A stretch of 32,000 nt of DNA from Acaryochloris marina S15 (GCF_018336915.1 NZ_CP064923.1:4470001-4502000), one strand, 5' to 3'; numbered from the stretch's first letter, positions 11,679 through 28,429 are shown. The notes: generated from the letters alone by a model not told the origin. Made by a program: numbers and translations.

Positions 11679-12989
11679 AGCCTGAGTCAGATGGTTTATA
11701 TCGTTCTGCAAATGGGCTTGTTTCTAGCTCGCTGTCTTCTGGAGGATGAACTCTCAAGGCGCGCGAAAGCAGTATTTGTATGGCCTGTATGTACTACCTG
11801 CGGAACCCGCTTACATTCGAAGGGATGGGAATCTCGTCAGATGCAGACACTGGTAGGCACTATCTCTTGAAAGCGACGGGTGGGCCGTTGTCCCAAAGGA
11901 TGTCCAGGCAGTCTGTTGACTCCCCTGGATCAAGCCATTGGGATTGCCCCCTATCAGCACAGCAGCGAAGAACTGGTGCGTCTGGGCTGCTTGTTGAGTC
12001 TGTTCATGCCCTATGAACTGGCCAGTTGGATGCTGGGTCAGTGGAGTGGTCTATCCGTGAGTCCATCCAGTTTGTGGAACTGGGTGCAATCCGTGGGTAA
12101 CAAAGCTCAGCAGGAATTAGAAGCTCAACTCAACGCTCAATCATCAGGGACTCAGGCCCCTTGTGAAGCGATTTCAGAGATGTTATCTGCTCTACCTTTG
12201 GCCATTGCCGCCGATGGTGTGATGGTCCCCTTTCGCCCCACCCCGAACTCACCCAAGGGAAAAATCCAGTGGCGAGAAGTCAAAGTCGCCATCTTAGCTC
12301 GCCTGGGAACACGGGTTACCCGAGCTAAAAAGGAGGTCCCCCAATTACTGCGTCGAAGACTGGTGGCAGTATTGGGCGATATCGACCAGTTCATCCCTTT
12401 ACTTCAACTCGAAGCTCACAAACAAGACTTTGAATCTGCTCCAAAAGTCATCTGGCTCAGTGATGGGGGACGAGGCTTCTGGCGAGTCTATCGCACCTTG
12501 TTCTCTCATTGTGCTGTGGCAGTCCTCGACTTTTTTCATTCAGCAGGCCATCTGGCACGAGCAACTAAAGCGATGTTTGGAGATGCCCGCTCTGCTCAAG
12601 CCCAAGCCTGGTTCCGGCACTGGCGACACCAATTGCGACACGGGCAACACCTACTTGTATTACGGTCCTTGACGATATTGATTCACTCACAACTGTTAAC
12701 GGGAAAGTCTTTTTCAACGTTGCTCCAGGTGCAGGCTTATTTCCAACGCCATCATAACCACATCCGTTATCGGCACTTTGAACAGCAACAGATTCCTCTC
12801 GGGTCAGGAATGGTTGAAAGTGCATGCAAGTGGTTGATTCAGCAGCGCTTTAAGGGAGTTGGCATGCGCTGGAGTGAGGATGGTTTCAACCATTTACTGA
12901 TCTTGAGAATTGCCTGGGTCAATGAACGGTTTGACTCCTTATTCCCAGAGGTGACCATTCCGAAAACTAAGGCATCCCCGATCCGCTAA
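11679..12989 (+). pseudogene. outer-copy ISKra4-like transposase, 3' portion
   Basis: The first 27 codons lie at 10103-10183. The translated ORFs are identical to those of the inner copy at a +1328 offset. The same in-frame TGA is at 11868-11870. Confidence 0.75.
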
Positions 12990-12997
12990 ATACGCCC

Positions 12998-13006
12998 AAC
13001 CCAATG
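12998..13006. repeat. 9-bp target-site duplication aacccaatg, right copy
   Basis: Immediately follows the outer copy's right terminus (ends at 12997). Confidence 0.85.
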
Positions 13007-13856
13007 GAAAGGTCGCAATATATTCATGGTGAGTATCATTTGGGGAACCCATGCTCTTCCCCTGTATTGGGAAGTTTTAGAGCATGTGGGTAATAGTCAT
13101 CTAGCCACTCAACAACGGCTCTTAAAAACAGTGCTACATCTGTTTAAGAATTATCCGGTTCTTGTCCTGGGAGATCGAGAGTTCCATAGCCCTAAACTAG
13201 CTGACTGGCTTGAGTCTGAGGGTGTATCTTTTGCTTTAAGACAGAAGAAAGACGGTCATTTTCAAGAGGAAGTCCATCAAGAGTATCAGGTGCTCAAACA
13301 GCTGGGCTTTAAACCGGGAATGTCTAAATTCTATACAGGTGTTTTGTGCAACAAAGGAGATGGCTTAGGGCCATTTAATCTGGCTGTCTATTGGAAACGC
13401 AAATATAGAAATAAGGGGCCGAAAGAGCCTTGGTATATCTTGACCAATCTGCCGAGTCTCAAACAAGCACTGGACATTTATTCTTGTCGCTGGGGAATTG
13501 AACAACTTTTCAAGGATTGTAAGACAGGAGGTTATAACTTAGAAGATACGAAAGTGAATGACACCCGATTTCTGGCCTTAGTTTTGTTGATTGCCATGGC
13601 TTATACCTTAGCTACGCTGCATGGGCAATGGATGAAAAAATTAGGAGTGGATATTTATGCTGGACGAATTAAAGAGCATAAAGATACGACTCAACGGCAG
13701 AGTGAATTTAGTCTTGGATTATATGGGCAACGATGGATTTATGCCATGGAATTGTGGGCTGATTGGGTGCAAAGTCTGATTGCGCTTAAACCCCATAAAC
13801 GCCTCTATTTTCAGAGAGGGTTCTCTGCTCTATCCCTTATAAAACAGGCTTTGTAG
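13007..13856 (+). pseudogene. IS4-family DDE transposase, C-terminal part
   Basis: Joining 10016 to 13007 restores ...AIDRTQW|KGRNIFMVSIIWGTHALPLYWEVLEH... The second D is in VLGDREF. The IS4 signature Y-x2-R-x3-E-x6-K appears in YSCRWGIEQLFKDCK. Confidence 0.8.
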
Positions 13857-13875
13857 CTTCGTTGTCATCCGCTAA

Positions 13876-14031
13876 GGTCTCTACTCAAAGTATTATGCTG
13901 ATTTTCCCGCCTTCAAAGGGGCCATTCAACAGTGCCTTGACCAGTGCAATGGAGAGCACAAGGCGAAACTAACAAGCCTTCTATCACTCAAGTTTCAGTC
14001 CTTTAAAGAAGTTAATATCTTAGCCGTCTAG
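13876..14031 (+). pseudogene. possible C-terminal remnant of an IS630-like transposase
   Basis: The open frame reads GLYSKYYADFPAFKGAIQQCLDQCNGEHKAKLTSLLSLKFQSF... This resembles the ...N.YY..F.eF..a....l......L.sLlt.nFq tail I recall from IS630/DDE_3 transposases. It has no start codon and begins at the IS4-family element's right edge. Confidence 0.3.
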
Positions 14032-14208
14032 AGTATATTAGATTGGTTTTATTTACAAGAGAGATAATTCTCCAAGAGCATGACTAAATCACGCTCATAG
14101 TCTGAACTGAAATTTTACGTAGGAGCTATCTACTTTGGCTCATTATTAAGTACTAAAGTTGAGCTAAACAGTGTGATTTAAAGCTTTTTTTATCCAACAA
14201 TATTTCGT

Positions 14209-15252
14209 CTAATTCAAAGATCTTTTTACTAATATTGCCCCCAAAATTGCTCCAATAACGGGACCATTAAGCGCACGATTTACCAACATATATTGACTTG
14301 TAGTATTGTCAATCACTCCTATAAATAGACTCCAAAATATAATTGAAATAAAGAGAAATACAAAACAACGGCGATTTACACCAATAAGTACACCTGAAAT
14401 TGCTCCAGAAACAATACCAATATATACTCCCGCTGCTAGAGGATATATAACATCGATATTTAAATATTTTGTCACTGTTGCTCCATAAATAAAGCCTGCA
14501 AGACTGCCGACAATTGCACTATCTTGCCTTGTTCGCCAAGTTATTTTTTTAAGGTGATGATTTGAATATGGTGGATATTTTCTAGTATTTGAAAGATCAT
14601 TAGAAGGTTGTATTTTTTTGTCAATATTGTCAATTTCTTCGGCAATAACAGCACAAATATCTATTCTTTTCCTAAATTTTTCTAACAGGATATGTACATC
14701 CTTCTCAAGTTCGGGCTCATTCAAACTTCTTTTCAGATCGACAAGTATAGATTTTTGTTCATCATAACTTAGAATTGTTGCACCAATCTTTGTAGCAAGG
14801 TCTACGATGTAAGAGATTGGAACTTCTGGAGGTATAGGTAGGGGGTTAGTCAGAGGTTTAGAATCTGGAAGATTAGCAAGAGCTCTAGCTAAAGCTAAAG
14901 CAGCATTGTGATCTTTTTGTTGGTAGTCTATAGCTTGAATTTGCAATAAGGTAGTTGGCAAGAGATTAATGGAAACTCCATCAGCTGCGAGAATCGGTAA
15001 AATTGGCTTACCCAGTTGATTTGCATAGTCATACTCGCGTAAACAAGCAGTTGATTGTAGTGATTCTGGTGTTAGTACAAAAACAAATAAGTCACACGTC
15101 CTGATATTTAAGAGGATTTGATCCCACCAAACTTGGCCTCCACTCAATTCCTGATCAAACCAGATAGTGTGGCCGAGAGATTCAATAGCATCTGCTAAGT
15201 CTTTCACTATAGTCTTGCTTTTATGGTTATAGCTGATGAATGTTATTGTCAT
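14209..15252 (-). CDS. TIR-domain protein with C-terminal multi-pass glycine-zipper membrane domain
   Basis: The N-terminus ITFISYNHKS...GHTIWFDQELSGGQVWWDQI...CDLFVFVLTPESLQSTACLREYDYA...GKPILPIL shows a TIR_2-like pattern. The conserved Glu is present (E73, codon 15034-15036). A helical linker follows, then 3-4 TM segments (aa about 245-345) rich in GxxxG/A. The gene is visibly AT-rich compared with the core genes. Confidence 0.8.
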   Translation of the reverse strand: MTITFISYNHKSKTIVKDLADAIESLGHTIWFDQELSGGQVWWDQILLNIRTCDLFVFVLTPESLQSTACLREYDYANQLGKPILPILAADGVSINLLPTTLLQIQAIDYQQKDHNAALALARALANLPDSKPLTNPLPIPPEVPISYIVDLATKIGATILSYDEQKSILVDLKRSLNEPELEKDVHILLEKFRKRIDICAVIAEEIDNIDKKIQPSNDLSNTRKYPPYSNHHLKKITWRTRQDSAIVGSLAGFIYGATVTKYLNIDVIYPLAAGVYIGIVSGAISGVLIGVNRRCFVFLFISIIFWSLFIGVIDNTTSQYMLVNRALNGPVIGAILGAILVKRSLN

Positions 15253-15273
15253 AACTCTTCTAAATACTCAGTC

Positions 15274-15296
15274 TTTATAGAATTTGTTTCTATAAA
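15274..15296. promoter_or_regulatory. 9-bp inverted repeat upstream of the TIR gene
   Basis: tttatagaa (15274-15282) and ttctataaa (15288-15296) are exact reverse complements with a 5-nt spacer. They lie 22-44 nt upstream of the ATG at 15252. This could be an operator or a 5'-UTR hairpin; function is not established. Confidence 0.25.
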
Positions 15297-15498
15297 TTCT
15301 AGGTTATTCAATTATTTTCACCTATATTAGACTTCTTGAAATATTCAGTTTACGATATGCTATCGATTTAATTCATGAGCCAACTTTGCATGCTGATTGC
15401 CTGACAGAAGTAGGTCAAAGCCTTTATTTACATAGTTTATGAGAAAAGAGTGGAGAGACATGTGAGGCTAGATTTAATCACAAATCAGCGTTATTCAA

Positions 15499-16134
15499 AT
15501 GTCAGGCCCCACCCAAATTTATCGTCAACTGTTTTCCTTTTTACGTCAACACAGCCATTATCGAGATTTGCGCCATCTCATTGCCCTGGGCTGGATGGTA
15601 AGCGCCTTAATCTGTAGTGAACGCTTAAGCTTATCTGCCTGGGAATCCTATGTTCCCTGCCGAGCCAGAAAAGCCCAAAGTGTCGAGCGTCGGTGGCAAC
15701 GATTTATAGCCAATCAACGCATTGATATTAACAAGCTATATGTACCTCTAGTCCTGCTAGCCCTTAAGAACTGGCAATCTCATCGTCTATACCTGGCAAT
15801 GGATACAACGGTGTTATGGAATGAATATTGCATGATTCATCTATCCGTCGTCTGCTGTGGCAGAGCAGTACCGTTGTTGTGGAAAGTATTAGAGCACAAG
15901 AGTGCAGCTGTCGCTTTTGAGGAATATCAACCGCTATTGCGCCAGGCCCGTTGGTTATTGCGGCAGCATCCAGATGTCATGGTGTTAGCAGATCGTGGGT
16001 TTGCGAACCATCAACTGATGAGCTGGTTACAACAGAGCCATTGGCATTACTGTCTGCGTGTCCCTTGTGATGTGGCTCTTCTCTGGCAACCGAGACAGAT
16101 CACAGTGGATTCCATTACAGCAGTGTTTAGATAG
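15499..16134 (+). pseudogene. truncated IS4/IS701-like DDE transposase, N-terminal about 200 aa only
   Basis: Shows ...RDLRHLIALGWMV...SVERRWQRFIAN...RLYLAMDTTVLW...GRAVPLLWKVLEHKSA...VMVLADRGFANHQLMSWL..., so the first two catalytic Asp regions are present. The YREK/E-containing C-terminal half is missing. Confidence 0.7.
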
Positions 16135-16198
16135 AACTGAAGTCGTCATCTGAATAAACTTCGCCGATAATGAATTCAAGTGAGTAAGGGTTATCCCC

Positions 16199-17455
16199 AT
16201 GCAGCGATTTAAAGTGCTTTTGCCTGCCTTGACTGTAGGAACTGCTTTGGTAATGGTGCAACCAGCCCAAGCGCTATCTGGAACAGAGGTGAATCAAATT
16301 GCCAAAGAGTCCACCATTTTGGTGAAAGGCCAAAATCCTGGTTCAGGAGTGTTGGTGGGGAAAAAGGAAAATACTTACTATGCCCTCACGGCAGAACATG
16401 TGGTTGCCACGCCTGACGAGTACGACATCGTGGCCCCAGATGGGACAGAATATGCCTTGAATTATCAATCGGTACAGAAGCTGCCGAATGTAGATTTAGC
16501 ACTGGTGAGTTTTACGAGTAAGCAGTCTTACTCCTTGGCAAAACTCGGCAACTCTGATCAGTTAACAGAAGGTGATAAGGTCTTTATTTCAGGTTGGCCT
16601 GCATCGGGTAGTGCCTTGCCCCATATCTATCAATTCACATCTGGCGAAATTTCCGGCCTGCCGCCCCAATCCATCGGCAAGGGTTACAAGATGGTGTATA
16701 CCAACGTCACCCGAGCAGGGATGAGTGGCGGACCTGTCTTTAATGATGATGGCAAAGTGGTGGGCATTCATGGCTTAGCCGAAGGGAGAGAGGTGGTCTT
16801 GCCGGGTTATCAAGGCGACCGCAGCGTGATTAAAGCTGGGTTCAATTTGGGAATACCCATCAATACCTTTGTACGACTATCCAAGAAGATGGAGGCTAAG
16901 CCCCAGGAGACTCCACAACCCATTCCAGCACCCATTCAAGAATCAACAGCGGTAGCGCAAGTGATCGATGCACCTGCTCTCCCAGCCCTCCCCAGAGGCC
17001 CAAAGGTTACTTTTGATCGCCCCCCTCAGCTTGTCAGCACTTCTACAACAAATCGAGATGCTCGATCTCTAGGAGCCACTTACTTCTTTACGATTGATAT
17101 TCCGCCAGATGCCGCTCAACCGTTGCAAAAGGTGGAGTTTATTTTGAAGCAAGGGGTTCAATATCCCCGTTTTAAGGCAACTTCTGTGAAAGCATTTGAG
17201 GGGACAAAGCGGAATAAGGGTGAGGCATTGCCGATAAATATCGTGGTCAGTGATCCATCCATTCGGACGTTAACAGTCACGTTTGATAGACCTATTGCTC
17301 CAGGCCAGACAATTACGATGGCTGTTCGCCCAGTGCGGAATCCTTCGGTGGGAACCTATATGTTTGAAGTGCGAGGGACACCTGCTGGATCTACTGAAAG
17401 CCAGTATTTAGGTATTGGTCGTCTCGATTTTTCCCGCAGTTCACTGGGGAAATAA
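16199..17455 (+). CDS. secreted trypsin-like (S1) serine protease fused to a DUF2808-like C-terminal domain
   Basis: Signal peptide (...VMVQPAQALSG). Catalytic triad context: LTAEHVV (His), NVDLALV (Asp), TRAGMSGGPVF (Ser). A Pro-rich linker is followed by a C-terminal domain (FDRPPQLV...YFFTIDIPPDA...VTFDRPIAPGQTITMAVRPVRNPSVGTYMFEV) that matches my memory of cyanobacterial DUF2808. Confidence 0.8.
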   Translation: MQRFKVLLPALTVGTALVMVQPAQALSGTEVNQIAKESTILVKGQNPGSGVLVGKKENTYYALTAEHVVATPDEYDIVAPDGTEYALNYQSVQKLPNVDLALVSFTSKQSYSLAKLGNSDQLTEGDKVFISGWPASGSALPHIYQFTSGEISGLPPQSIGKGYKMVYTNVTRAGMSGGPVFNDDGKVVGIHGLAEGREVVLPGYQGDRSVIKAGFNLGIPINTFVRLSKKMEAKPQETPQPIPAPIQESTAVAQVIDAPALPALPRGPKVTFDRPPQLVSTSTTNRDARSLGATYFFTIDIPPDAAQPLQKVEFILKQGVQYPRFKATSVKAFEGTKRNKGEALPINIVVSDPSIRTLTVTFDRPIAPGQTITMAVRPVRNPSVGTYMFEVRGTPAGSTESQYLGIGRLDFSRSSLGK

Positions 17456-17513
17456 ATCGTGTCTAACACAAAGAGTTGCAATGTTAAGGCCATGAATAAT
17501 CGTGGCAGAATGC

Positions 17514-17557
17514 CTGAATAGTGATTAACCTTTACAAATTAGTTAATCACTATTCAG
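17514..17557. repeat. perfect 16-bp inverted repeat with 12-nt spacer
   Basis: ctgaatagtgattaac (17514-17529) is the exact reverse complement of gttaatcactattcag (17542-17557). It lies between the protease gene and the IS6-like fragment. Confidence 0.7.
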
Positions 17558-17624
17558 ACAGAAGTATGGCATCTAGTTATCAGTACATGAACCAGCGGGA
17601 GCATTTAAACAGAAAGTTACAGTT

Positions 17625-17810
17625 TTATCTGAAATTTTTTACTGGTATGACGTCCAGATCGGATTTATTGAATTCGGGGTAATTGAAGGGAGTGTCTGTA
17701 CGCCCATTGTAAGTTCGATGGCATCGCTTACAGCAGAACATGGCATAACCGAAATTGGTTGTACGCTGAAGAAATGAGACTCGATTTGAATGGCAGTGAG
17801 GATAATTCAT
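17625..17810 (-). pseudogene. IS6-family transposase, N-terminal zinc-finger fragment
   Basis: MNYPHCHSNRVSFLQRTTNFGYAMFCCKRCHRTYNGRTDTPFNY... matches the CxxC...CxxC...ERTGTPFN N-terminus I recall for cyanobacterial IS6 transposases. The DDE domain is absent, and degenerate traces may continue to about 17560. Confidence 0.55.
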
Positions 17811-18016
17811 GAAAGGAAGGCAGAGTATAGCTTAGAAAAAATAATCGGCTTGTCAGGCGAGCGATGATTCCTCAATTTTTGCTACTCAAGGCTAACGGTT
17901 TCCCATATCTAGGGCTACCACGCAAATTTCCGGAGAGCCAATTCTTTGAAGATATTGAACCTGCTATGGTCTAAGCTTTTCCCTATGACACTCAAATACC
18001 TCATGAATAATCCAAA

Positions 18017-21000
18017 CTAAGTATCCATTAGCCGCATCAAGAGATCTTTTACTCTTTGACAAGTGTCCTTGTAACTACTGAGTTCAATCAGAGAATCAAG
18101 TTGATCAAAAGCTGAATCTTTTTCTCGTTGAGTACGACCCGTCCCTTTCGTCCAAGCCAGATAATAGGCTTTTGCGATATCTTCTACAGATGCTTCTGAC
18201 TCATGGATACTTAAGTAGCGAAGCAGAGCTACTTCTGCGAGAGCAGCCTGACTCCATTCATCATCGTGGGATTTAGCACTCTTCTCGATCTCCTTCAACT
18301 CTTTATCGATATCGCGATTGGGATCGAGGCAGAGGTCTAAGGCCACTTGTTGGGAAAGTGGATAGTAGAGATTTTCAGGTTTCTGACCACAGGCAGCTGC
18401 ATAAGCATTTCGAGCCTCTTTAATACGTGGTTTACGCACATCTTTAGGGGCTGTCTTTGCTAATCGTTTTAAGATTGATCCCAATAAGCTATAGCGTTCT
18501 GATGATTCTTGAATTGCCAATAATCCATTTATCTGGTCTTGCGCACTGGCGAACCAGCTCTCTGCTTTGTCCTTTTGTTTTGGCGTTAAAGGAGGTTGAT
18601 GAGGGATAGGTTTTAATATTTGTTCGGCAGCACGAGCTTTCATATTAACGAGCCGCTCAATAGCCTCAATCGGAGCTTTCGATGTTTCGATCGCTTTTTC
18701 ATACCAAAAGACAGCCTCAGCATAATAGCCTAAGTCAGAATAGGCTTTACCAAGTCCAGACGTGATTTCACCTTTATGTTGCCATTGAGGATCTATATTT
18801 TGAGCTAATTCGTCGAGTTGGCGCTTAAGGCTCAGACGTTTAAGGTCATCCGCACCATTCGCTCGTTGGGAAAAATCTTGAAGATGTTCTTGGAGTTCAT
18901 CTGGGGAGACAAACACATGATTGTGAAACTGAGTGGGATTACGACGATCCACCCAGTAAAACGTAAATCCTGGATCTCCATAGACTTGATAAGCTCCCCA
19001 GGTTAAGTCATTGGGGCTACCAGTATTGTAGGTGGCAGCACGAGCAAGTCGTACTGCGTTCATCAGGGTATTACCTCCAATCAACTGTTCATAGAGGTTT
19101 TTTGCAAAGACTTGAGCAGACTGATCTCCCACAGCCCATCCCGCCACAACCACGACGCCAACCCCCATCTCAATCAACTTTTGAGCTAAACTCGCGGCTA
19201 AGTGACCCGGTTGGGAGTTGCGGCCCAAACTCCCTTCACCTAATTTTCCTAAATGGCAGCAATTCAAAAAGACAATGGAGGGTACTGCTTTCAGATTTTT
19301 AAACTCACCCGTCGTGAGGAAATCCTCTTGTCCAATCAAAACACCTGACTTAGAAGGGTCTTCTGCGTTGTAATCACCATGAGCGGCAATGTGAATAATG
19401 TCATATTCATCTTTATATAAAGCCTTGAAGATAGATTTAGTATCTGTGCCAATCTGACGTTCTGGTTTGATGTTAGATTTTTCTAGATAGTCAGCAATAG
19501 CTATGGCTTCTTTCTTTGCACCAGGCAGTTGTGGATTAACACCTACTGGATCACCAATGACTAAGGCTTTGCGACCTGAGGCTCTACGCGGATTTTCTCT
19601 ACATTCAGGGGTAGACAACGTTCTGAGCACACCAACTCGGACCCCTAAAGGCAATTGCCCAGAAGTTTTATCATGATCAGGGTCGAGTAATTCCCAAGGA
19701 ATTCGAGCCGTGTGACTATCTAATCCTAAGACCAAGTCTGGCGTATCTAAAGCATTATCTAAGAACTGATAGGGAAGCAAGTATTGGAATAGAGTTGCGC
19801 AAGAACAGATAGGATCTGTCATCGATTCTGATAATAGATTATCCACATACTTCCACTGGATTATGCGGATGTAGGGTTCACTGCGTGCCATATCTGTAGT
19901 GACGAAAAACTTTAACCCCTCATATTTGTCATAGTTTGTGATCTGAATTCTCCGGCTCCAACCTGCGCCATAAGGAGAAATGGGACGACTGCTGCGACCA
20001 CTAGCTCTAATATTAAGTTTTGATGTTACATCAACTTCCTGTTCATGACGGATCCGTAGCGTTTGCGCTGCATGTCCAGCATTGATCGCAATATCTCGGT
20101 AGAGTTCGACTATTTCAATGCACCGAATTTGGACACAGTTACCCAGATGTTTTTCGGTCAAAATATGATTAGTCGTTAGGGCTGCATTGAAAATCGAGGA
20201 AACTGATTCTTCCACAGTAATGCGTGATCCGCCAAAGCTGCCGATAAGGATACTGCTTAGACTGAGTTCATTGAGTGGGGCTGCGTCTTCTGGGATATGG
20301 CGTAATGCATATTCCAACATGGCAGAAACGAGATCACCTTCTAAAGAAAGCTTTTGGAGTTTCCCGACTTCACCTAACCCCGTGACAATAACACCGCCTT
20401 TAAGGTTTTCTGTTGTGTCATAGATCCGCACTGTTCCATGGGGCCCAGGATAACGCCCAATCTGGAGATCACGGGACATCGTCCCACCGATGGCTTTGTC
20501 TAATACAGATTCAACGCTGACGATGGGATCTCCGATATAATGACCGGCGATAACGGGATATTTTGCTTCACGAATATCAGCGTTTGTAACTTCTAGTTTG
20601 ATTGGCGCTGTAAAATCCGGCTGAAGTTCCCAGGCCCGACCCGCGATCGCCTCAAAGATATCGGCCTCATTCGGATACACTCGGAGTTCGAGTTCTTGCT
20701 CTTCTTCTGCTAAGGTAAATAGCTCTGTTTCAGTATCCCGCTGAATTACAGGGGGACTATTCGAAAGCTTATTGGTTCTACCGTCAGATAGTAGTTCTAG
20801 ATAGCCGTCGAAGGCGGGTGGATAATTGGGGAGTTGACCATGCTCGGCATCCACATAGTAGGTCTCCACTTTGGGAAGCCGTCCAAGTTCCCAGGGCACG
20901 GCACCATCTCCACGACCAGTATAGCGAAACGTCACTTTGTTGTCCGCTTTTTCCATCGTTGTGGGAGTGGCCTTATCATGACCTGCCACATAGACCATAT

Positions 21001-23233
21001 AGTCGGCATCAATAGCTTGATTGAGTCGTTGCCGAAACGCTTTGGCGTTCTCCAGTATTGTTGGATCGGGACGATATGCTTCGAATCCATTCCAGCTTTC
21101 TGGAGTGATCAAATCAAAGGCTTTTTCGGCACCGTCCTCCTCTAGGGTTTTATAGGGCAGCATTTCCATCAAACCAGGAAAATCCCGTACTAGCACAGTT
21201 AAATCCTTAAGCGAATTCCTTAGGTCAACTTTGGCTAGGGTTTGGAGGAGCTTATGTTTTTGCGTGACGACCTGGGCGGGCACATAAGAACCATAGTTTG
21301 GAGTTCCTAACATGACAAGTCGTCCGCCACGTTGCGTCATTTTTTCCCATACGCGTGGATATTCTGACAGGATAGACCGAGCTACAAGCCCTCCCATGGA
21401 ATGAGCAAGGATGCGAATTGGCTGTTGATGATTAGATAGTTCTGCCTTAATCTGCTCAACTAACAATGCTGCAGAGTCCCGAATAGGGATTCGCCAGTCA
21501 AAGTCAAAGGTTAGGACGTCATAATGTTTAATAAGCCTATCGTAGAGTCGCTCATAGACTAGATTAATGAGGCCATCAGGCGAAATCTGATCTTGATAAG
21601 GTTCTTCTTGATAAATCTTTCCTGTATCAATTTTTAGTTTGCTTATACCTCCAAACGCAATACGCCCTGGGTGAATCCATTGTCGATCACTATCGTGGGC
21701 TAAATGTGAGCCCATAATGCCGGGTAGGAAGAACAACACAGGTCGCTCTCCTGTGGTGGGCTTGTTATCGGGAATTGCACGTGTGCTATTTCCTCTTAAT
21801 CCGCCATAATCATCATTAGAACGAAGCGGAGAAAATCCTTCTTTTTTGTCTTCTAACCAGCCCACGATGGGGATGCGGGTAGCATCTTCCTTAAAGTAAG
21901 AGAAATGATCAGCATGGGGGCCGCGCGCATATAGGCCCCAGGCATTTTCGCGGGGGACACCGCGAAACATGGATTTGCTATCAACCACGAGGTCGTTATC
22001 TTCGCGATAATAGAGATTTGCAAAGAAGGCTTTGACTCGAGTCAATGCCCCTCCTTCAGAAAGATCTCCCGCGATAATCCCAATCTCCTGCTTTTCATCT
22101 AATGCTTTGGCAGAGTTTAGAAAGGGGATATAGCCTTTATCCATATGAGGCATCATGGCCTCAAGTCCTGGGAGTTTATCGGCTTTAGTGCGCGTTTTAA
22201 TAATCGTTAATGCGGTGGCTTTGATAAATTCATAGGCAGCTGCAGCGGCGGGGCTAGTTAGTTTACCTACTAATGTAAGGATAATGTTGAGGTAAGTATC
22301 TGCTCGCTCAGATGCCAGTAGGGTGCCCGCAGCTGGAGAGGCCACTCGAACATATCGCTCAATTTTAACGTCTTTGTTTTTTCGTTGGTCTCTAAACTGG
22401 TTGAGTTGTGCTTGAGCATCGGGATAGGTACTCTGAGGGAAGAATTGTTCGACTTCCTCATTTTCCCAATCTGGACGACAGAATAAATCTCCAATCAATC
22501 CACCTCTGGAATAGGTGAGTAAATGTAATTTAGCTCCCTGGGGAAGTTCTGAGAGAATTTGAAGCGCATTGTCAACAGGACTTTTAGTGACCGTAAAGTG
22601 CTCTAAGGCAAGGACATGCCCCTCTACATAACCTTGATAGAGTCGCTTCCATTCGACAGAAGTGAATAACTTATCAAAAGAGCCAGCAGTGGAACTGAAA
22701 GTACCATGAATTAGGACAAGATAGGGGTCTGGAGAGACTTGAAGATCGTGGGCGAAAGTTGTGCGCACTCCATCTGGGCCAAGATGGTAGAGCCCTGGCT
22801 TCTCCATGTGTCGTGGTTCAAGTGTCTGGGCAATAATTGTGGTGGCGTCTTCTGTTGCTTTCTCTATAAAGCTGCTCTTGATGCGTTTAATGATATTGAG
22901 ACCAATATCTGCTAGACCTCTGTTAGTTCCACCCATCGGTCTACGAGCGGGAACACTGATGGCGTCGTCACTGACGTCGCGGTTTATCTCACCATAGCGA
23001 GCATTGAGTTCATCGGCTCTAATCAGTTCAATAATCCCGTCTTCCCAGGTGAGTTCCAACACGTCATCAGGTTGGACATCATCAATGACAATGCTTTGAT
23101 GAGTACCTCGGCTGCGGGAAAGACTGACATTGGTTTCTTCTTCGACCTGAAAGATATCAGCATATGTCTTGAAGGTTGGAGTAATGTCGTTAGATGGACG
23201 GAGTTCTCCTGGAAGACGGATTTTAAGGGTCAT
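18017..23233 (-). CDS. 1738-aa multidomain protein: two lipase-type alpha/beta hydrolase domains, an unassigned region, a CHAT (caspase-like) protease and TPR-like repeats
   Basis: Hydrolase 1 (aa about 165-470): LVLIHGTFSS, nucleophile elbow LTYSRGG (Ser242, 22508-22510), NDLVVDS, HADHF. Hydrolase 2, LCAT-like (aa about 500-800): FDFDWR, AHSMGGLV (Ser612, 21398-21400), GTPNYGS, GDGAV, AEHG. Unassigned region aa about 830-1160. CHAT: IIHIAAHGD (His1285, 19379-19381) and FLNCCHLG (Cys1325/1326, 19256-19261). C-terminus has TPR-like helices (GKAYSDLGYYAEAVFWYEKAIE). Confidence 0.9.
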   Translation of the reverse strand: MTLKIRLPGELRPSNDITPTFKTYADIFQVEEETNVSLSRSRGTHQSIVIDDVQPDDVLELTWEDGIIELIRADELNARYGEINRDVSDDAISVPARRPMGGTNRGLADIGLNIIKRIKSSFIEKATEDATTIIAQTLEPRHMEKPGLYHLGPDGVRTTFAHDLQVSPDPYLVLIHGTFSSTAGSFDKLFTSVEWKRLYQGYVEGHVLALEHFTVTKSPVDNALQILSELPQGAKLHLLTYSRGGLIGDLFCRPDWENEEVEQFFPQSTYPDAQAQLNQFRDQRKNKDVKIERYVRVASPAAGTLLASERADTYLNIILTLVGKLTSPAAAAAYEFIKATALTIIKTRTKADKLPGLEAMMPHMDKGYIPFLNSAKALDEKQEIGIIAGDLSEGGALTRVKAFFANLYYREDNDLVVDSKSMFRGVPRENAWGLYARGPHADHFSYFKEDATRIPIVGWLEDKKEGFSPLRSNDDYGGLRGNSTRAIPDNKPTTGERPVLFFLPGIMGSHLAHDSDRQWIHPGRIAFGGISKLKIDTGKIYQEEPYQDQISPDGLINLVYERLYDRLIKHYDVLTFDFDWRIPIRDSAALLVEQIKAELSNHQQPIRILAHSMGGLVARSILSEYPRVWEKMTQRGGRLVMLGTPNYGSYVPAQVVTQKHKLLQTLAKVDLRNSLKDLTVLVRDFPGLMEMLPYKTLEEDGAEKAFDLITPESWNGFEAYRPDPTILENAKAFRQRLNQAIDADYMVYVAGHDKATPTTMEKADNKVTFRYTGRGDGAVPWELGRLPKVETYYVDAEHGQLPNYPPAFDGYLELLSDGRTNKLSNSPPVIQRDTETELFTLAEEEQELELRVYPNEADIFEAIAGRAWELQPDFTAPIKLEVTNADIREAKYPVIAGHYIGDPIVSVESVLDKAIGGTMSRDLQIGRYPGPHGTVRIYDTTENLKGGVIVTGLGEVGKLQKLSLEGDLVSAMLEYALRHIPEDAAPLNELSLSSILIGSFGGSRITVEESVSSIFNAALTTNHILTEKHLGNCVQIRCIEIVELYRDIAINAGHAAQTLRIRHEQEVDVTSKLNIRASGRSSRPISPYGAGWSRRIQITNYDKYEGLKFFVTTDMARSEPYIRIIQWKYVDNLLSESMTDPICSCATLFQYLLPYQFLDNALDTPDLVLGLDSHTARIPWELLDPDHDKTSGQLPLGVRVGVLRTLSTPECRENPRRASGRKALVIGDPVGVNPQLPGAKKEAIAIADYLEKSNIKPERQIGTDTKSIFKALYKDEYDIIHIAAHGDYNAEDPSKSGVLIGQEDFLTTGEFKNLKAVPSIVFLNCCHLGKLGEGSLGRNSQPGHLAASLAQKLIEMGVGVVVVAGWAVGDQSAQVFAKNLYEQLIGGNTLMNAVRLARAATYNTGSPNDLTWGAYQVYGDPGFTFYWVDRRNPTQFHNHVFVSPDELQEHLQDFSQRANGADDLKRLSLKRQLDELAQNIDPQWQHKGEITSGLGKAYSDLGYYAEAVFWYEKAIETSKAPIEAIERLVNMKARAAEQILKPIPHQPPLTPKQKDKAESWFASAQDQINGLLAIQESSERYSLLGSILKRLAKTAPKDVRKPRIKEARNAYAAACGQKPENLYYPLSQQVALDLCLDPNRDIDKELKEIEKSAKSHDDEWSQAALAEVALLRYLSIHESEASVEDIAKAYYLAWTKGTGRTQREKDSAFDQLDSLIELSSYKDTCQRVKDLLMRLMDT

Positions 23234-23816
23234 GTTGAGGATCCTGAAACTTGAGCAGCCATCTTGCCATCAGACCATACTTTTATCACTTCCACGCCAT
23301 AATTTTATTATTTTTCAATTACCTCAATTTGGGGTTTTTGGAGTAAACGAAATTATCAGCACTGGGTAGCCAGATTTCATAAAATTGCCATTAGCAACCC
23401 TAACCTTTATCCTTAATTACTATTCAGATAGTCTGAAATATTTCTTTCAGTTCACTAACACCGTGGATGATTTTTCCCCATCAGATAGAGATACGAGGTC
23501 TGCCATTCGACTCCGAGATCTCAAAATGACAGCTCCTGTAGCTTCTCTTCCAACGTATTTCCCATTGTCCTTACCCATCCTGCAACTGCCTTAGATGCTC
23601 ATCAAATCGCTAATAAGCCTTCTTGATCAGCTGCTTATCTGTTTCCCACTACAGCCGATAAAAAGTCAAACCCTAGCTCACAAGCATCATGAAACTCTAT
23701 CTCCCAGGTCACCATTCACGCAGAAGCTTCCTATACTCTGCTTTAGAGTACAGTAGACTCACAAGACATATTGCTCTGAATCCCATTAACCCTGAATCAT
23801 AACCAATAAGGGTTAT

Positions 23817-24407
23817 TCAGCTTAACTCAAGTGCAAACCCTGGCAATACATCTGCCCCAAACACAGTAGCCGGAAGCTGCACAAATTCAACCTCTTGCCC
23901 CACTCTATATATCTCTACCGTCTGGTCCTGAGGATTAATCAACCGCCCCAACCTCAAACCACTGTCTAAGTACTCCAACATCTTTTCCTGTAGAGGTCCT
24001 AAGCGATCGCTTTTTGAGCGTAGTTCAATCACAAAATCAGGGCAAATGGGCGGAAACTGCTCCTTTTCCTCTGGCGATAGCGCATCCCAGCGTTCTTGGC
24101 TCACCCAGGCCGCATCAGGAGAACGATGGTCCTAGACCGGCCTTCGGCCATCACCTCCACCAGGCAGCTTGAACATAGTAGACGAACTAAAGACTACTCC
24201 TAAGCCAGCCTGACGATTCCAGAGATTGAGGTCAGTAATATAGTCTGCTTCCTTGCTTCCACTTCCACCACCAACTGGGGGCATAATGATCAATTCTCCC
24301 ATTGGGCTACGCTCCATAGCCACGTCTTTATTGGCCATACACAGCTTATAAAACTGCTCATCGGTCAGTGTCACTACCGGTTCTAGATTGAGCGTAATAG
24401 CCGTCAT
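23817..24407 (-). pseudogene. Uma2 (DUF820) family endonuclease interrupted by an in-frame TAG
   Basis: Track ORFs 24132-24407 and 23817-24104 are in the same frame: ...FKLPGGGDGRRPV*DHRSPDAAWVSQERW..., where SPDAAWV is the usual Uma2 motif. A single TAG at 24132-24134 splits the gene. HIP1 at 24003-24010. Confidence 0.75.
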
Positions 24408-24452
24408 AACGTGAGTTCGCGATCTTACGGATTCATTATTTTTAGAAGCGCT

Positions 24453-24463
24453 GACTCTAAGAT
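24453..24463. repeat. 11-bp target-site duplication gactctaagat, left copy
   Basis: The identical 11-mer is at 25948-25958, directly outside the IS4 termini. Confidence 0.85.
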
Positions 24464-24496
24464 CAATGTCACTGACTTAAGAAAGCAGAAAAGGGC

Positions 24497-24531
24497 TGCA
24501 AGTCTTGATAGATATAGAATCAAGACTTGCA
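24497..24531 (+). promoter_or_regulatory. 13-bp perfect inverted repeat in the IS4 5' leader
   Basis: tgcaagtcttgat (24497-24509) and atcaagacttgca (24519-24531) are exact reverse complements with a 9-nt spacer. They lie 26 nt upstream of the transposase ATG. A role in damping read-through expression is inferred only. Confidence 0.4.
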
Positions 24532-24556
24532 ATCCATCAATAATCTGCCTTCTACT

Positions 24557-25924
24557 ATGTCTCAGTCAGCCGAAATTCTCAAGCATCAGTTTTCCCAAAG
24601 CCTGGGATTGCCCTGGACGGATATTCTTCCCGCTTCAAGGCTGACCGACATCCTAGCAGAGGAATCAATCTCCTATCGCAACCGTGTGTATACGCCCATC
24701 GTTACGTTGTGGGCCATGCTCTACCAAGCATTATCTGCAGACAAAAGCTTGCGCAACACGGTCAAATGCATCACCACCTGGCTCACTGCCGCAGGACTCC
24801 AACCCCCATCATCAGATACAGGAGCCTACAGTAAAGCCCGAGGAAGATTACCTGAGTCCCTGCTGCAAAGGTTAATTCCCGAAACTACTAATCACATAGA
24901 GCAAAGCATTCCCCAAGAACACCACTGGTGTAATCGAACAGTGAAAGTCTATGACGGCACGACAGTGCTGATGGCTGATAGTGCGGCGAACCAAGGGGAG
25001 TATCCTCAACATGGCAATCAGGCTCCTGGCTGTGGATTCCCCATTGCCCGTTTAGTGGTGTTTTTTTGCTTAATCACAGGGGCAGTGGTCTCAGCCTGCA
25101 TTGCCCCCTGGAGCATGAGTGAAATCGTCATCAGTCGGCTGCTTTATGAGGATCTGGAGGTTGATGATGTGGCCATAGCAGATCAAGCCTATGGCAGCTA
25201 TGTTGATCTAGCCCTGATTCAACAACAAGGAGCCGATGGGGTTTTACGTAAACATCATGCCCGTCATACAGACTTCCGTAAAGGACGTAAGAACGGGATA
25301 GGAGACCACCAAGTTCAATGGCAAAAGCCCACACGGTGTCCCGCCCACATGAGTGCAACGGAGTTTGCAGAGATTCCCAAAACGTTGACAGTCAGGGAGG
25401 TATCGCTACGTCTATCGCGTCGAGGCTTTCGAGACCAGTTCATTATCGTCGTCACAACCTTACTGGATGCTCAGCGCTATAGTGCTAAACAATTGACTCG
25501 CTTGTACGGATGGCGATGGCAGGCGGCTGAAGTCAATTTGAGACACCTCAAAACCACCTTAAAGATGGAAATGCTCACGGCAAAGACACCTGAAATGGTG
25601 CGCAAGGATATTTGGTCTCATTTGCTAGGCTACAACTTATTGAGAAGTCTCATGGAACAGGCTGCCCCATGGGCAGAATATGACCGCTCTCGACTCTCTT
25701 TACAAGGGGCTCGACAACACTTTAATCAGATGCTGGTTTTGTTAGCAACGGCCACACAAGCTATACGTCAACGGTTGTATGCTCATCTGCTTGAAAATAT
25801 TGCTACTGACCTTCTGCCTGTTCGACCCCATCGGCTCGAACCCAGGGTCGTTAAACGAAGACCTAAGCCCTTCCCCAGAATGCGACAACCGCGCTCTGTC
25901 CTCAAAGCCAATCTGGCTGCTTGA
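24557..25924 (+). CDS. IS4-family DDE transposase
   Basis: I prefer the ATG at 24557 over the TTG at 24527 used by the track. Motifs: VKVYDGTTVLMADS (D), AIADQAYGSY (D), LYGWRWQAAEVNLRHLK (YREK-like region). Confidence 0.9.
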   Translation: MSQSAEILKHQFSQSLGLPWTDILPASRLTDILAEESISYRNRVYTPIVTLWAMLYQALSADKSLRNTVKCITTWLTAAGLQPPSSDTGAYSKARGRLPESLLQRLIPETTNHIEQSIPQEHHWCNRTVKVYDGTTVLMADSAANQGEYPQHGNQAPGCGFPIARLVVFFCLITGAVVSACIAPWSMSEIVISRLLYEDLEVDDVAIADQAYGSYVDLALIQQQGADGVLRKHHARHTDFRKGRKNGIGDHQVQWQKPTRCPAHMSATEFAEIPKTLTVREVSLRLSRRGFRDQFIIVVTTLLDAQRYSAKQLTRLYGWRWQAAEVNLRHLKTTLKMEMLTAKTPEMVRKDIWSHLLGYNLLRSLMEQAAPWAEYDRSRLSLQGARQHFNQMLVLLATATQAIRQRLYAHLLENIATDLLPVRPHRLEPRVVKRRPKPFPRMRQPRSVLKANLAA

Positions 25925-26083: not shown

Positions 26084-27154
26084 CTACTCATCCGTATGCC
26101 AAGGATCCTTAGTAAAATTCTCATCCAAAATCCGCTTAGGCCGCATCACTAAAACAACCTGCCCATAAAGCTTTTGCTCAGGAGCCTCCGCAAACCACTG
26201 CACCTGCAAATGCCCATCCACCTCTATCAGAAAATAGCAGTCCTCATGCCACTGTCGCTGATCCCGATCAATAATCACCAGCACCTCCTCCGTCGGCCGA
26301 GGCAAATCCGGACCTAAATCCTGCACCTGAGCCAACAACGCCACCGGATCCTCCGCTCGTAAAATCACCTGCCACCCTGGAACTGGCACCCAAGTACAGT
26401 TACCCGAAAACTGAACCATTCCAAAAGGCTCTTCTTCTTCCACTACTGGCACTGCCTTTAAATCATCCACCGTCAACGGCAAGTGACCCACCACAGGCAT
26501 CAACCGGGGCAGCTCCTCCTCCGACTCCAACCGGAAAAACGGCAGGCGGGGAGCCTCTTTTGCTTTTACCACTGAGAAATCGCTTAACAGCATTTGCAAC
26601 TTTTCCCGGGCTGAATCGCTATGGGCAAACTTTAACCCCTGACCGATTAACCGCGATCGCTCCTGCAAATCATCCTTTTGACGGGCGAAATACCAGCATC
26701 GATAGGCCATCGCATCCCCTGGTGTATCTGTGAATCCCACCGGAGTCTCCGAGAGGCGACTGTACTCCTTCATCGCCTTTGCGATCGCACGGGCTTCATC
26801 CGCATCCAACTGCTTCTCTGCCGCCAGGGTCGCCGCTTCCGCTCGTCCATCCTGATTCAGCACTCGAAATTCATAGAGAATATCGCTACGGCGTTCCCCA
26901 AAATACTGGCAAGCCGCATCTGCCCCCTTGTCCTTCAGATTTTGATAGACCTGCCCCGCCACAACAATCTGGTTTTGTTGAATCGGTTCAATCCCAGATT
27001 CTTCAAAAATCTGCTGAGGACTATAGCCCGCTTTCTGGAGCTGCTGGCAGGCCATCCCCCAATCTACCCAGGTTTTCTGCTTACGGCGAAGCATCAGTAA
27101 AAGCTCGTCGACATCAATATCGGGGCTAGATCCAGGAGGCGTAAAAGAAGTCAT
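26084..27154 (-). CDS. raf1: Rubisco accumulation factor 1
   Basis: Matches conserved Raf1 blocks: KQKTWVDWGMACQQLQKAGYSPQQIFEESG, LYEFRVLNQ, RLIGQGLKFAHS, RLESEEELPR, WVPVPGWQVILRAEDPVALL, and the C-terminus DPWHTDE. I prefer the ATG at 27154 over the TTG at 27169. HIP1 at 26653 and 26781. Confidence 0.85.
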   Translation of the reverse strand: MTSFTPPGSSPDIDVDELLLMLRRKQKTWVDWGMACQQLQKAGYSPQQIFEESGIEPIQQNQIVVAGQVYQNLKDKGADAACQYFGERRSDILYEFRVLNQDGRAEAATLAAEKQLDADEARAIAKAMKEYSRLSETPVGFTDTPGDAMAYRCWYFARQKDDLQERSRLIGQGLKFAHSDSAREKLQMLLSDFSVVKAKEAPRLPFFRLESEEELPRLMPVVGHLPLTVDDLKAVPVVEEEEPFGMVQFSGNCTWVPVPGWQVILRAEDPVALLAQVQDLGPDLPRPTEEVLVIIDRDQRQWHEDCYFLIEVDGHLQVQWFAEAPEQKLYGQVVLVMRPKRILDENFTKDPWHTDE

Positions 27155-27178
27155 GGGCAAAGATCGCAATGAACGGAA

Positions 27179-28429
27179 TTACTGAGGACGAACAATCAAT
27201 TCTTCTAGAGTACGGGTTTGGGTACGAGTATCATACCCAATCAGCTTAATGTAACTTCGGGGATGATCTTGCAGACAGGCTTGTAACCCCGCCATGGCAT
27301 CCGTGACCGTTCGAGGTGCTTGGGGCCAAGACCAGCTGCGCCAGACATTACCCGCCTTTTCTCGAGGCGTAGCCGTCTCCAAATTAAGTTGGCTGTCCTG
27401 ACGCATAGCCTGTTGAAATAGATGCTCAATTTCATGGCTAGCAATATGGTCCGGCCAGCCTCCCTGATGTTGCTTCTCAATCTCAGCCTGAAGGTAGCTG
27501 TCGGGTTCTGGTGCAGACGTTGGAGATGACGGTACCACGGGTTCAGCCTTCGCCCCCGATACATAGACTTGGGCCAAGCGAGCGTTATGTAGGCGATCTT
27601 GTTCTCCCACCATGGCCTCACCCAAATCAATCAAATGCTCCAAAGTCAGAGCCGGGGGCTGGATCTGCACCTGCCGCTCAGGGGAATTGACCAAATAGGT
27701 GGATACTTTGCTAATACCAATAGAACGAATAAAGTCTCGGACCTGTTCATCATAGACTCGCGATCGCAACGCCCCAAAAAAGTCGATAGCCTGATCCGCA
27801 AAATGATTCACCAGCTGTTCAATCACAGAACTGGGTAACCGATCCGGCTCAAAAATCCCCTGAACAATTCCCAATCGATCCTCGGAATTGGGCTGCCAAT
27901 AGAACTTATCCATCCGCCCATCCCGCACCAGCGGCGCATAGAGGGTAGAAAAATCATTGCCCGTCACCAAAATTGGCACTCGATGGATCGGCTGAGTATC
28001 ATAGCTACCCGGCAACTGCACATCTGTAGGATTATCGGCAATATTCATCAGGGTGCCATTCACCAACTGGGTATTGACGGTATATTGAGTCGTCTGATCC
28101 ATGCGACCGGCCCCAGCATCCAGATCGTTAATCAGCAGCACACACATTTTGCCCCGCACTTTGATCAGTTCCGCCGCTTCCCGATAACGCATCCGAATTA
28201 GGCGCACCGGATCTCCCGCATCAGGACTTTCCAGCTCCCCCGCCGACATTCGCACTGGCTCAATGCCCATATGCTCAAACAGTAACTCGCACTGGAAGGA
28301 TTTTCCTTCCCCCTTGCGACCATGAATCCCCAAAATTAAAGGCACTCGCAGCCCTGGCAAGGCCATAAAGTTTTTGGTGATATGGACGGCCAGTCTATCT
28401 AAAAATCGAGGCGATAGGTAATACCCCAT
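27179..28429 (-). CDS. rca: Rubisco activase-like AAA+ protein with C-terminal RbcS-like (SSUL) domain
   Basis: N-terminus MGYYLSPRFLDRLAVHITKNF. Walker A GIHGRKGEGKSF and Walker B LLINDLDAG. The C-terminus ...ACLQDHPRSYIKLIGYDTRTQTRTLEELIVRP parallels the RbcS C-terminus in this same window ([31 protein letters not shown]). I prefer the ATG at 28429 over the TTG at 28435. Confidence 0.9.
   Translation of the reverse strand: MGYYLSPRFLDRLAVHITKNFMALPGLRVPLILGIHGRKGEGKSFQCELLFEHMGIEPVRMSAGELESPDAGDPVRLIRMRYREAAELIKVRGKMCVLLINDLDAGAGRMDQTTQYTVNTQLVNGTLMNIADNPTDVQLPGSYDTQPIHRVPILVTGNDFSTLYAPLVRDGRMDKFYWQPNSEDRLGIVQGIFEPDRLPSSVIEQLVNHFADQAIDFFGALRSRVYDEQVRDFIRSIGISKVSTYLVNSPERQVQIQPPALTLEHLIDLGEAMVGEQDRLHNARLAQVYVSGAKAEPVVPSSPTSAPEPDSYLQAEIEKQHQGGWPDHIASHEIEHLFQQAMRQDSQLNLETATPREKAGNVWRSWSWPQAPRTVTDAMAGLQACLQDHPRSYIKLIGYDTRTQTRTLEELIVRPQ

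Follow-up and report, generated by a model that had tools for sequence, protein, structure and literature searches.

Here, we report that a single gene of Acaryochloris marina S15 (GCF_018336915.1, NZ_CP064923.1:4470001-4502000), located at 18017-23233 on the minus strand of the 32,000-nucleotide stretch that was analysed (hereafter the window), encodes a conserved 1738-residue protein that carries on one chain a CHAT protease, two lipases that appear to be active, a domain of macro fold and a set of tetratricopeptide repeats (TPR) predicted to act as a sensor. As far as the sequence allows us to judge, there is about an even chance that the big gene encodes a cytoplasmic, self-contained, signal-gated conflict effector, used in abortive infection or in regulated cell suicide. 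The open reading frame (ORF) is intact (5,217 nt, ATG start, 1738 residues and a stop codon); its limits and length, already given in an initial annotation made from the DNA alone, agree with the ORF listing, with the translation and with a database protein, 'CHAT domain-containing protein [Acaryochloris marina]', that is 100% identical to it. Neither a signal peptide nor a membrane-like segment was found in the 1738 residues, the sole hydrophobic peak being the CHAT core.

Domain order and catalytic residues

Domains were called with Pfam at its curated cut-offs, and conservation was read from a MAFFT alignment of 115 full-length homologues of 29-51% identity. The domain order from the N terminus is a family-specific N-domain, DUF7379, an LCAT-like hydrolase, a macro-fold domain like the leucine-aminopeptidase N-terminal (LAP-N) domain, CHAT and TPR-S (Table 1). 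Four of these modules, i.e., hydrolase 1, the LCAT-like hydrolase 2, CHAT and TPR, had been proposed by the initial annotation, and all four score above the Pfam cut-offs; NCBIfam gave no meaningful match to the 1738-residue protein. The catalytic residues of the three enzymatic modules had been judged intact, and all of them are indeed present. Since 112 of the 115 homologues keep every member of the three sets (S242/D414/H443, S612/D776/H798 and H1285/C1326), all three predicted activities are under selection.

Hydrolase 1 matches DUF7379 (PF24096) from residue 172 with 113.2 bits against a cut-off of 33 (1.9e-32), and its oxyanion pair H176-G177, its nucleophile S242 (YSRGG), D414 and H443 are found in 115/115 homologues. 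The AlphaFold2 model of residues 1-480 has an overall predicted local distance difference test (pLDDT) score of 80, and the top Foldseek matches of the hydrolase 1 model are bacterial true lipases from Geobacillus, Proteus, Pseudomonas and Staphylococcus (E ~1e-6, probability 1.0). A two-helix insertion at residues ~311-347 of this model may be a lid.

For hydrolase 2, the LCAT match (PF02450; 27.3 bits against a cut-off of 21, residues 573-693) covers only profile positions 87-203 of 392, and PF02450 is precomputed for most homologues. The FDWR motif (D579-W580-R581), D776 of the GDGAV motif and H798 are present in 115/115 homologues, and the nucleophile S612 (AHSMGG) in 112/115; DWR and GDG motifs together with a Ser-Asp-His triad define the LCAT/LPLA2 family. 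Compared with the PDB by sequence, hydrolase 2 was weakly matched by group XV phospholipase A2 (E 0.3) and by a putative lipase. Both hydrolases resemble LCAT/lysosomal phospholipase A2 and the bacterial family I true lipases in the alpha/beta-hydrolase fold and the Ser-Asp-His triad, hydrolase 2 through its DWR and GDG motifs and hydrolase 1 through its Foldseek matches in Geobacillus, Proteus and Pseudomonas. Unlike these enzymes, to which they are 11-14% identical, they have no secretion signal and are embedded in a signalling protein. The initial annotation had called them a membrane-lipid hydrolase pair within a phospholipase effector; the lipase and LCAT folds and motifs stand, and phospholipase specificity is what we infer for both from that likeness only.

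The region between hydrolase 2 and CHAT was said to match nothing recognisable, as was the N terminus, apart from a faint recall of macro/LAP-N-like folds in the motif VIAGHYIGDPIVSVESVLDKAIGG. The statement holds for the N terminus; in the middle region it is the faint recall that proved right, on three lines of evidence. A profile made from a 31-homologue alignment of residues 835-1150 matches the N-domain of a leucine aminopeptidase structure (3jru, E 5e-4). PF02789 (Peptidase_M17_N) is matched by 17/31 homologues (best E 4.3e-7), the window protein alone giving no Pfam match. The AlphaFold2 model of the middle region (mean pLDDT 84) finds LAP N-domains and macro domains in Foldseek (PARP9 macro 2, YmdB, macroH2A, MacroD1/2 and PARP14) at probability 1.0, E ~1e-6 to 1e-5 and ~188 aligned columns. 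On this modelled fold, with sequence support at the level of the family only, the segment is assigned to the leucine-aminopeptidase N-terminal branch of the macro-fold domains. It shares their fold by the model comparison and, for the family as a whole, by the profile and Pfam comparisons, but it has no attached M17 catalytic domain, and its invariant residues (H, E and D) and loops rich in glycine are its own: H898 is found in 115/115 homologues, E908 and E1043 in 114/115, and D902, D912, Y928-P929-G930, G952-L953-G954, G957, G998 and N1022 are further conserved. In the model, the conserved residues fall in loops after three consecutive strands, roughly where macro domains have their ligand cleft, which is suggestive of a role in ligand binding. 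A small sub-domain that follows, with a conserved A1116-R1117 pair, always accompanies the macro-like domain in an exhaustive hidden Markov model (HMM) search.

The CHAT module is matched over profile positions 5-289 of 289 (PF12770; 106.2 bits against a cut-off of 24, 2.9e-30), and H1285-G1286 and C1325-C1326, the latter in an N1324-C1325-C1326 motif, are found in 115/115 homologues. By its motifs it is a caspase-fold cysteine protease with an intact catalytic dyad, i.e., a predicted protease. The TPR platform, which the initial annotation described in generic terms, does consist of TPR repeats, but specifically of the TPR-S 'sensor' family (PF20308; 41.8 bits against a cut-off of 27.6, 1.8e-10, residues 1504-1628), with weak generic TPR matches in addition. 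Consensus-TPR structures match residues ~1487-1535 (E 1.8e-7), and a single-sequence search of the PDB with the CHAT-TPR part returned designed TPR proteins only. The C-terminal tail has no Pfam match past TPR-S. At the other end of the chain, the N-domain is modelled with modest confidence (pLDDT 50-83 over the beta-rich residues 1-120), has R42, R85 and R105-G106 as conserved residues, and found no match in a profile search of the PDB.

Table 1. Features of the big gene and of its surroundings, in window coordinates (aa, residues of the 1738-residue protein)
Feature	Coordinates	Strand	Description
Whole gene	18017..23233	-	1738 codons and a stop; multi-enzyme product, intact and predicted to be cytoplasmic
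N-terminal domain	22799..23233	-	aa 1-145; beta-rich, then long helix; family-specific
Hydrolase 1	21839..22741	-	aa ~165-465; DUF7379 (PF24096) lipase-type alpha/beta-hydrolase
Hydrolase 2	20744..21751	-	aa ~495-830; LCAT/LPLA2-like alpha/beta-hydrolase
Macro-fold domain, LAP-N (PF02789) type	20039..20611	-	aa ~875-1065; assigned on predicted fold
Beta/alpha sub-domain	19799..20038	-	aa 1066-1145, between macro-like domain and CHAT; three strands and two helices in the AlphaFold2 model
CHAT	18974..19798	-	aa 1146-1420; predicted caspase-fold cysteine protease (PF12770)
TPR repeats including TPR-S (Tetratricopeptide Repeats-Sensor)	18350..18808	-	aa ~1476-1628
C-terminal tail	18020..18349	-	aa 1629-1738; conserved along the family
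Leader	23234..23816	.	580 bp, non-coding, between the split Uma2 gene and the start codon
TIR-domain protein	14209..15252	-	347 aa; N-terminal TIR_2 (2.4e-20); 2.8 kb downstream of the big gene
RND efflux operon	2262-6905		HlyD-like and AcrB-like genes; one flank of the low-GC segment
Rubisco cluster	26084-31943		Raf1, activase-like gene, GDSL lipase, rbcS, rbcX, rbcL; other flank of the low-GC segment

A widespread family with a constant core

The initial annotation implied a singular architecture, which is not what the searches returned. More than 120 full-length proteins of 1,700-1,900 residues with the same Pfam set are among the matches listed, and they come from Cyanobacteria, Chloroflexota, Myxococcota, Pseudomonadota, Bacteroidota and Acidobacteriota. 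The exhaustive HMM search with the middle-domain profile gave 2,111 clusters (50% identity) at E<=1e-3 and 1,226 at E<=1e-30, and the middle domain lies nearly always at ~830-1200 of a protein of ~1,800 residues. A scan by N-terminal alignment places the phyletic distribution, which the initial annotation had left to be established, at no fewer than 562 species-representative genomes of many phyla (~0.3% of species representatives as a lower bound), and eight near-full-length copies (>=80% of the query covered) are plasmid-borne. The initial annotation had allowed that the architecture might be catalogued already and have a housekeeping role; an automatic NCBI name, 'CHAT domain-containing protein', does exist, but no function is assigned to the family. 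Our literature searches on DUF7379, on TPR-S with CHAT in conflict systems and on TPR-S with TIR found nothing.

Most short family members are N-terminally truncated metagenomic fragments and not new architectures. There are genuine variants, i.e., one protein without the LCAT module (P0225), one without DUF7379 (P0161), and a complete 936-residue homologue on the Rhizobium leguminosarum plasmid pRL31b3 that consists of macro-like domain, CHAT and TPR-S only. Because such core-only and single-hydrolase variants exist, the macro-like domain, CHAT and TPR-S are the constant core of the family, and the hydrolases and the N-domain are additions at its N terminus. One further plasmid match (H11, Qingshengfaniella alkalisoli NZ_CP042263.1, 164524-165510) is annotated as a trypsin-like peptidase and has a region like hydrolase 2 (query residues 476-823); it is another pairing of a peptidase with an alpha/beta-hydrolase.

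Neighbouring genes, known systems and candidate functions

If the protein is a conflict effector, the constant core would be the switch. The trigger would reach TPR-S, and perhaps also the macro-like domain at its glycine-rich cleft, and turn the CHAT protease on; the two N-terminal serine hydrolases would be the payload, degrading membrane or other ester lipids; in some lineages CHAT would also act on an adjacent C14 caspase. The order of these events, the lipid substrates, the nature of the trigger and the role in defence or suicide are what we infer here. CHAT and caspase-like proteases are triggered immune effectors (10.1101/2024.10.24.620036), and a caspase paired with an alpha/beta-hydrolase is a recurrent effector pair in conflict systems (PMC7159879). 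The family is best filed as a variant of such caspase-like or CHAT-based conflict effectors. A defence or death effector was also what the initial annotation proposed. The genomic context agrees with it, i.e., a patchy distribution, an island of low guanine-plus-cytosine (GC) content rich in insertion sequences (IS), plasmid copies beside restriction-modification genes, and TIR, caspase, STAND and patatin neighbours; the function itself is conjectural. Activation by autoproteolysis, which the same annotation suggested, is possible, but nothing found speaks for it.

The neighbours of the family were surveyed by all-against-all clustering of the ORFs that flank 80 genome loci (0.93 Mb of flank). 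These loci are among the matches listed of the genome scan, and Acaryochloris is not among them, so they are uninformative on this genus. At least one C14 caspase, TIR, TPR-S or STAND partner is present in 28/80 loci. A stand-alone C14 caspase (Pfam 1.2e-31; PADLOC 'caspase' 3.2e-23) occurs in 11/80, mostly 25-192 bp upstream and on the same strand; a TPR-S protein of 460-750 residues in 8/80, adjacent in most; and nSTAND1-WD40 proteins in 6/80. In seven loci (L036, L041, L057, L071, L080, L085 and L015), mostly of Pseudomonadota, the C14 caspase 25-192 bp upstream has 270-380 residues, and the big protein of these seven is longer (1,817-2,019 residues). A recurrent 314-residue 'unknown' neighbour cluster was rejected as an antisense shadow of the caspase genes. 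By analogy with SAVED-CHAT, which acts on PCaspase in type III-B CRISPR (10.1101/2024.10.24.620036), the operonic caspase of this subset suggests that CHAT may process a second protease.

Single loci vary in what they hold. In Algoriphagus a WYL regulator lies upstream of the homologue, and in Lyngbya a second CHAT protein does. The Azotobacter homologue is on a mobilizable plasmid with a type I restriction-modification system, Fic, a PD-(D/E)XK nuclease and IS elements. A GH108 lysozyme-like gene is found just downstream of the core-only gene of Rhizobium (L093). In Falsiroseomonas sp. (L025, 7777-9120, minus strand), a DUF4062 protein is encoded upstream of the homologue, with TIR genes also nearby; the DUF4062 family has been described as TIR-like NADases (2026 preprint).

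The TIR genes bring in another explanation, in which the big protein acts as receptor-effector in a pathway of the Thoeris kind. Infection would be detected by a TIR protein, in many cases a TIR-STAND sensor resembling NLRs, whose gene may lie close by or at another site. This TIR protein would make a nucleotide derived from nicotinamide adenine dinucleotide (NAD), and the nucleotide, bound by TPR-S and/or the macro-like domain, would switch CHAT on and license the lipases. Several loci fit such a pathway. In the cultured strain Aquimarina agarilytica ZC1 (L053, 9896-16021), a 244-residue ThsB-like TIR gene (PADLOC ThsB 3.8e-22) starts 4 bp after the full-length homologue on the same strand, which is a Thoeris-like two-gene arrangement. 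On pRL31b3 (L093, 975-14601), the core-only gene lies between two genes for TIR-nSTAND1-WD40 (NLR-like) proteins. The homologue P0047 has a TIR_2 domain fused at its C terminus, in a locus that is a defence island (patatin, C11 peptidase, SIR2-nSTAND1 and PLD); four TIR genes and a patatin stand beside a Flavobacterium homologue; in L041 the order is caspase, big gene and TIR-nSTAND1-GAF, the last 538 bp downstream; and a TIR-membrane gene is present 2.8 kb away in the window. Overall, an iterated HMM search found 18 TIR-domain ORFs in the flanks of 14/80 loci, half of them within 1.5 kb, these being raw counts with general expectation as their only yardstick. There are precedents: the Macro domain of type II Thoeris senses His-ADP-ribose and a caspase-like protease is the type IV effector, and the TPR domain of type VIII is proposed as a cyclic ADP-ribose sensor, an idea credited to an earlier prediction by Aravind, as given in a Thoeris survey (10.64898/2025.12.03.692087).

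Against this pathway stand the 66/80 loci with no TIR gene in their flanks, and the TIR proteins encoded next to homologues show no orthology among themselves, as would be expected from mere co-residence in defence islands. In the window, the big gene and the TIR gene do not share an operon. The macro-like domain belongs to the LAP-N type, whose ADP-ribose binding is putative, the identity of the type VIII TPR domain with Pfam TPR-S could not be confirmed, and the family is absent from the examined parts of the survey's supplementary tables (10.64898/2025.12.03.692087). Since the TIR partners are heterogeneous and usually absent, LAP-N has no known nucleotide ligand and the type VIII domain is not confirmed as TPR-S, we hold the Thoeris-like pathway to be rather unlikely. 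The broader proposal that the family is the receptor-effector of an undescribed TIR branch, Thoeris-like or NLR-like, in which an NAD-derived nucleotide, made by TIR or TIR-STAND sensors and read by the LAP-N macro domain and/or TPR-S, would activate CHAT and then the two lipases, in some lineages also a C14 caspase, we find doubtful. Compared with the known types, the resemblance to type IV Thoeris (the TIR protein ThsB with the caspase-like ThsE) lies in a caspase-fold protease serving as immune effector in a TIR context and in the one homologue that has a ThsB-like gene 4 bp downstream, and the resemblance to types II and VIII in a macro-fold domain (II) or, as proposed, a TPR domain (VIII) that perceives a TIR-made nucleotide. 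In contrast, the protease of the big protein is a CHAT and not the small type IV caspase with its own C-terminal domain, two serine hydrolases are fused to it, its macro-like domain is of LAP-N type, and an operonic TIR gene, present in Aquimarina, is lacking in most loci including the window.

To return to the signal-gated conflict effector, a number of points weigh against it. No C14 caspase, TIR, TPR-S or STAND partner is present in 52/80 loci, and the neighbours inspected by hand in Sedimentitalea, Bryobacteraceae, Polyangiaceae and Paracoccus are ordinary metabolic genes; recurrence of neighbours was judged only against general expectation and not against matched random loci. PADLOC recognises no known defence system, only an overlap of 155 positions in CHAT with BovA. 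To our knowledge, no nucleotide ligand is known for the LAP-N branch, and the macro-like domain could be merely an oligomerisation module. Protease control over the hydrolases is a proposal only, and their lipid substrates are predicted only. About two thirds of the loci are solitary, in line with the description of the gene in the initial annotation as standing alone, which is true in the window as well. The family must therefore be able to work alone, the trigger being sensed directly or the signal being made by genes elsewhere.

The many loci set among metabolic genes would also fit a housekeeping or developmental enzyme, i.e., a regulated machine for lipid remodelling and protein processing that is not aimed at invaders and acts, for example, in membrane turnover or in the programmed death of cells when multicellular or filamentous bacteria differentiate. 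Morphologically complex or filamentous lineages (Cyanobacteria, Chloroflexota, Myxococcota, Thiothrix, Chitinophagaceae and Nitrospirales) often carry the family, and conflict and developmental death systems have domains in common (PMC7159879, PMC8195603). We nevertheless consider this improbable in view of the patchy distribution (at least ~0.3% of species representatives), the single-member Acaryochloris cluster with its nearest relative at 51% identity, the plasmid-borne copies and the IS-rich, low-GC setting of the window gene; no conserved metabolic neighbour was found across the 80 loci.

Toxins that bacteria secrete often carry lipase or phospholipase domains, and the N-terminal 145 residues could in principle be a delivery domain. 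On these grounds the protein might be conceived as a polymorphic toxin or virulence factor, secreted or delivered by contact, with lipases directed at the membranes of other cells. This is very improbable in our judgement: neither a signal peptide nor a membrane segment is present; genes for secretion systems, Rhs/PAAR or immunity-like proteins do not recur next to the family in the 80 loci; and CHAT, TPR-S and macro-like domains are what one typically finds in intracellular signalling. Nor do the neighbouring proteins share the N-domain, and the idea that it is a shared adaptor (effector-associated domain) was likewise dropped, no copies being present in neighbouring proteins of the 80 loci.

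Among the other known systems, Borvo (BovA) is a single-gene CHAT defence system and the sole PADLOC match of the big protein (E 2.1e-8), but only profile positions 508-662 of 711, the catalytic CHAT core, are matched and the remaining architecture is unrelated. The CRISPR-associated CHAT proteases, i.e., TPR-CHAT/Csx29 of type III-E and SAVED-CHAT of type III-B, are alike in that CHAT stays inactive before a signal comes and the same protein contains TPR repeats, and the C14 caspase gene immediately upstream in most of the 11/80 loci mirrors the CHAT-to-caspase cascade of SAVED-CHAT. Unlike them, the big protein lacks SAVED, its TPR is C-terminal and of the TPR-S family, and it has lipase and macro-like modules that are absent from CRISPR systems; neither cas genes nor a CRISPR array is present in the window, and none recurs in the 80 loci. 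In the vWA-MoxR (VMAP) ternary systems, a caspase-superfamily peptidase is obligatorily paired with an alpha/beta-hydrolase, the two being predicted joint effectors (Kaur et al. 2020, PMC7159879). This combination is shared, but the big protein fuses both in one chain with macro-like and TPR-S domains, and no vWA, MoxR or VMAP genes are present in the window or recur in the 80 loci. Since the BovA match is limited to the CHAT core, cas, SAVED, vWA and MoxR are missing, and the window has no operonic TIR gene, the big protein is not a member of the type IV Thoeris, SAVED-CHAT, Craspase, Borvo or vWA-MoxR systems.

The setting in Acaryochloris marina S15 and what the family may mean

The chromosomal neighbours in the window (rbcL-rbcX-rbcS, Raf1, a Rubisco-activase-like gene and DUF2808) fit a cyanobacterial chromosome. 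Between the RND efflux operon and the Rubisco cluster, ~18 kb (window ~7000-25000) have lower GC (0.34-0.49) and contain IS110 and DDE transposase genes or fragments, and this segment looks like a variable island. The big gene itself has a GC of 0.43-0.47 against ~0.51 in the flanking core genes (RND efflux operon and Rubisco cluster), and the 90%-identity cluster of its protein has a single member, the next relative being 51% identical. Together, this GC and IS setting and the isolated cluster point to a strain-specific, horizontally acquired gene. Exact-protein look-ups of the flanking genes in other Acaryochloris strains returned the same strain or nothing, so strain specificity rests on the single-member cluster.

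The TIR-domain protein of the window has hydrophobic, membrane-like segments at residues 268-320, lies between DDE transposase genes in the lowest-GC stretch (0.34), and gave weak TIR-type matches only in PADLOC. Between its gene and the big gene are a convergent trypsin-DUF2808 gene and a transposase fragment. It is possible that it is a functional partner of the big protein; it was rejected as an ortholog of the TIR genes beside the homologues. The convergent gene (16199-17455, plus strand) encodes a trypsin-like peptidase fused to the cyanobacterial DUF2808 domain; its protease part has a weak PADLOC likeness to Lamassu LmuA and to RT-protease defence proteins, and the gene was not found beside homologues elsewhere. 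Elsewhere in the window, a 1,328-bp unit is present in two perfect tandem copies (10342-11669 and 11670-12997), each with a 369-residue ORF that starts with GTG and has no Pfam match, and a 167-bp unit repeated twice (10012-10345) stands before them; the whole arrangement, within 10012-12997, may represent an IS-like element in tandem or else an artefact of assembly. No repeat array was found at 7-26 kb of the window, and none of the window proteins carries a Cas or SAVED domain.

Upstream of the big gene, the leader was described as non-coding by the initial annotation, and no ORF of 70 residues or more was found in it; the same 580 bp hold no Rfam family, and promoter-like or terminator signals in it do not rise above the shuffled expectation. 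Directly beyond this leader, a Uma2-family gene (PF05685; 23817-24407, minus strand) is split in two ORFs that match profile positions 2-72 and 79-171, and it is probably a pseudogene.

Hundreds of species in many phyla carry the family, yet no function has been assigned to it and none of the defence-system models searched recognises it. We consider it above routine in that three conserved, predicted enzymatic activities and two candidate sensor domains are carried by one chain, with a newly recognised macro-like module and a clear modular core. Domain pairings of a like kind have appeared in computational surveys before. The two-gene operon of Aquimarina and the core-only locus of Rhizobium are directly testable entry points, and the two-gene and three-gene loci make the TIR and caspase-cascade hypotheses testable. 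Should the protein serve in defence or suicide, it would add a single-gene system with three enzymatic activities to those known, offer a tractable model of a protease that gates other effectors in cis, and be a candidate for a new kind of nucleotide sensor. If its role is instead in development or lipid remodelling, the finding would give a function to DUF7379 and to a large number of proteins named only automatically as 'CHAT domain-containing protein'. If the TIR branch is true, then TIR signalling, a caspase-like cascade and lipase-like proteins would be linked in one bacterial polypeptide, in an echo of plant signalling from TIR to the lipase-like EDS1/PAD4 and of animal caspase cascades, and the LAP-N macro branch would have its first ligand.

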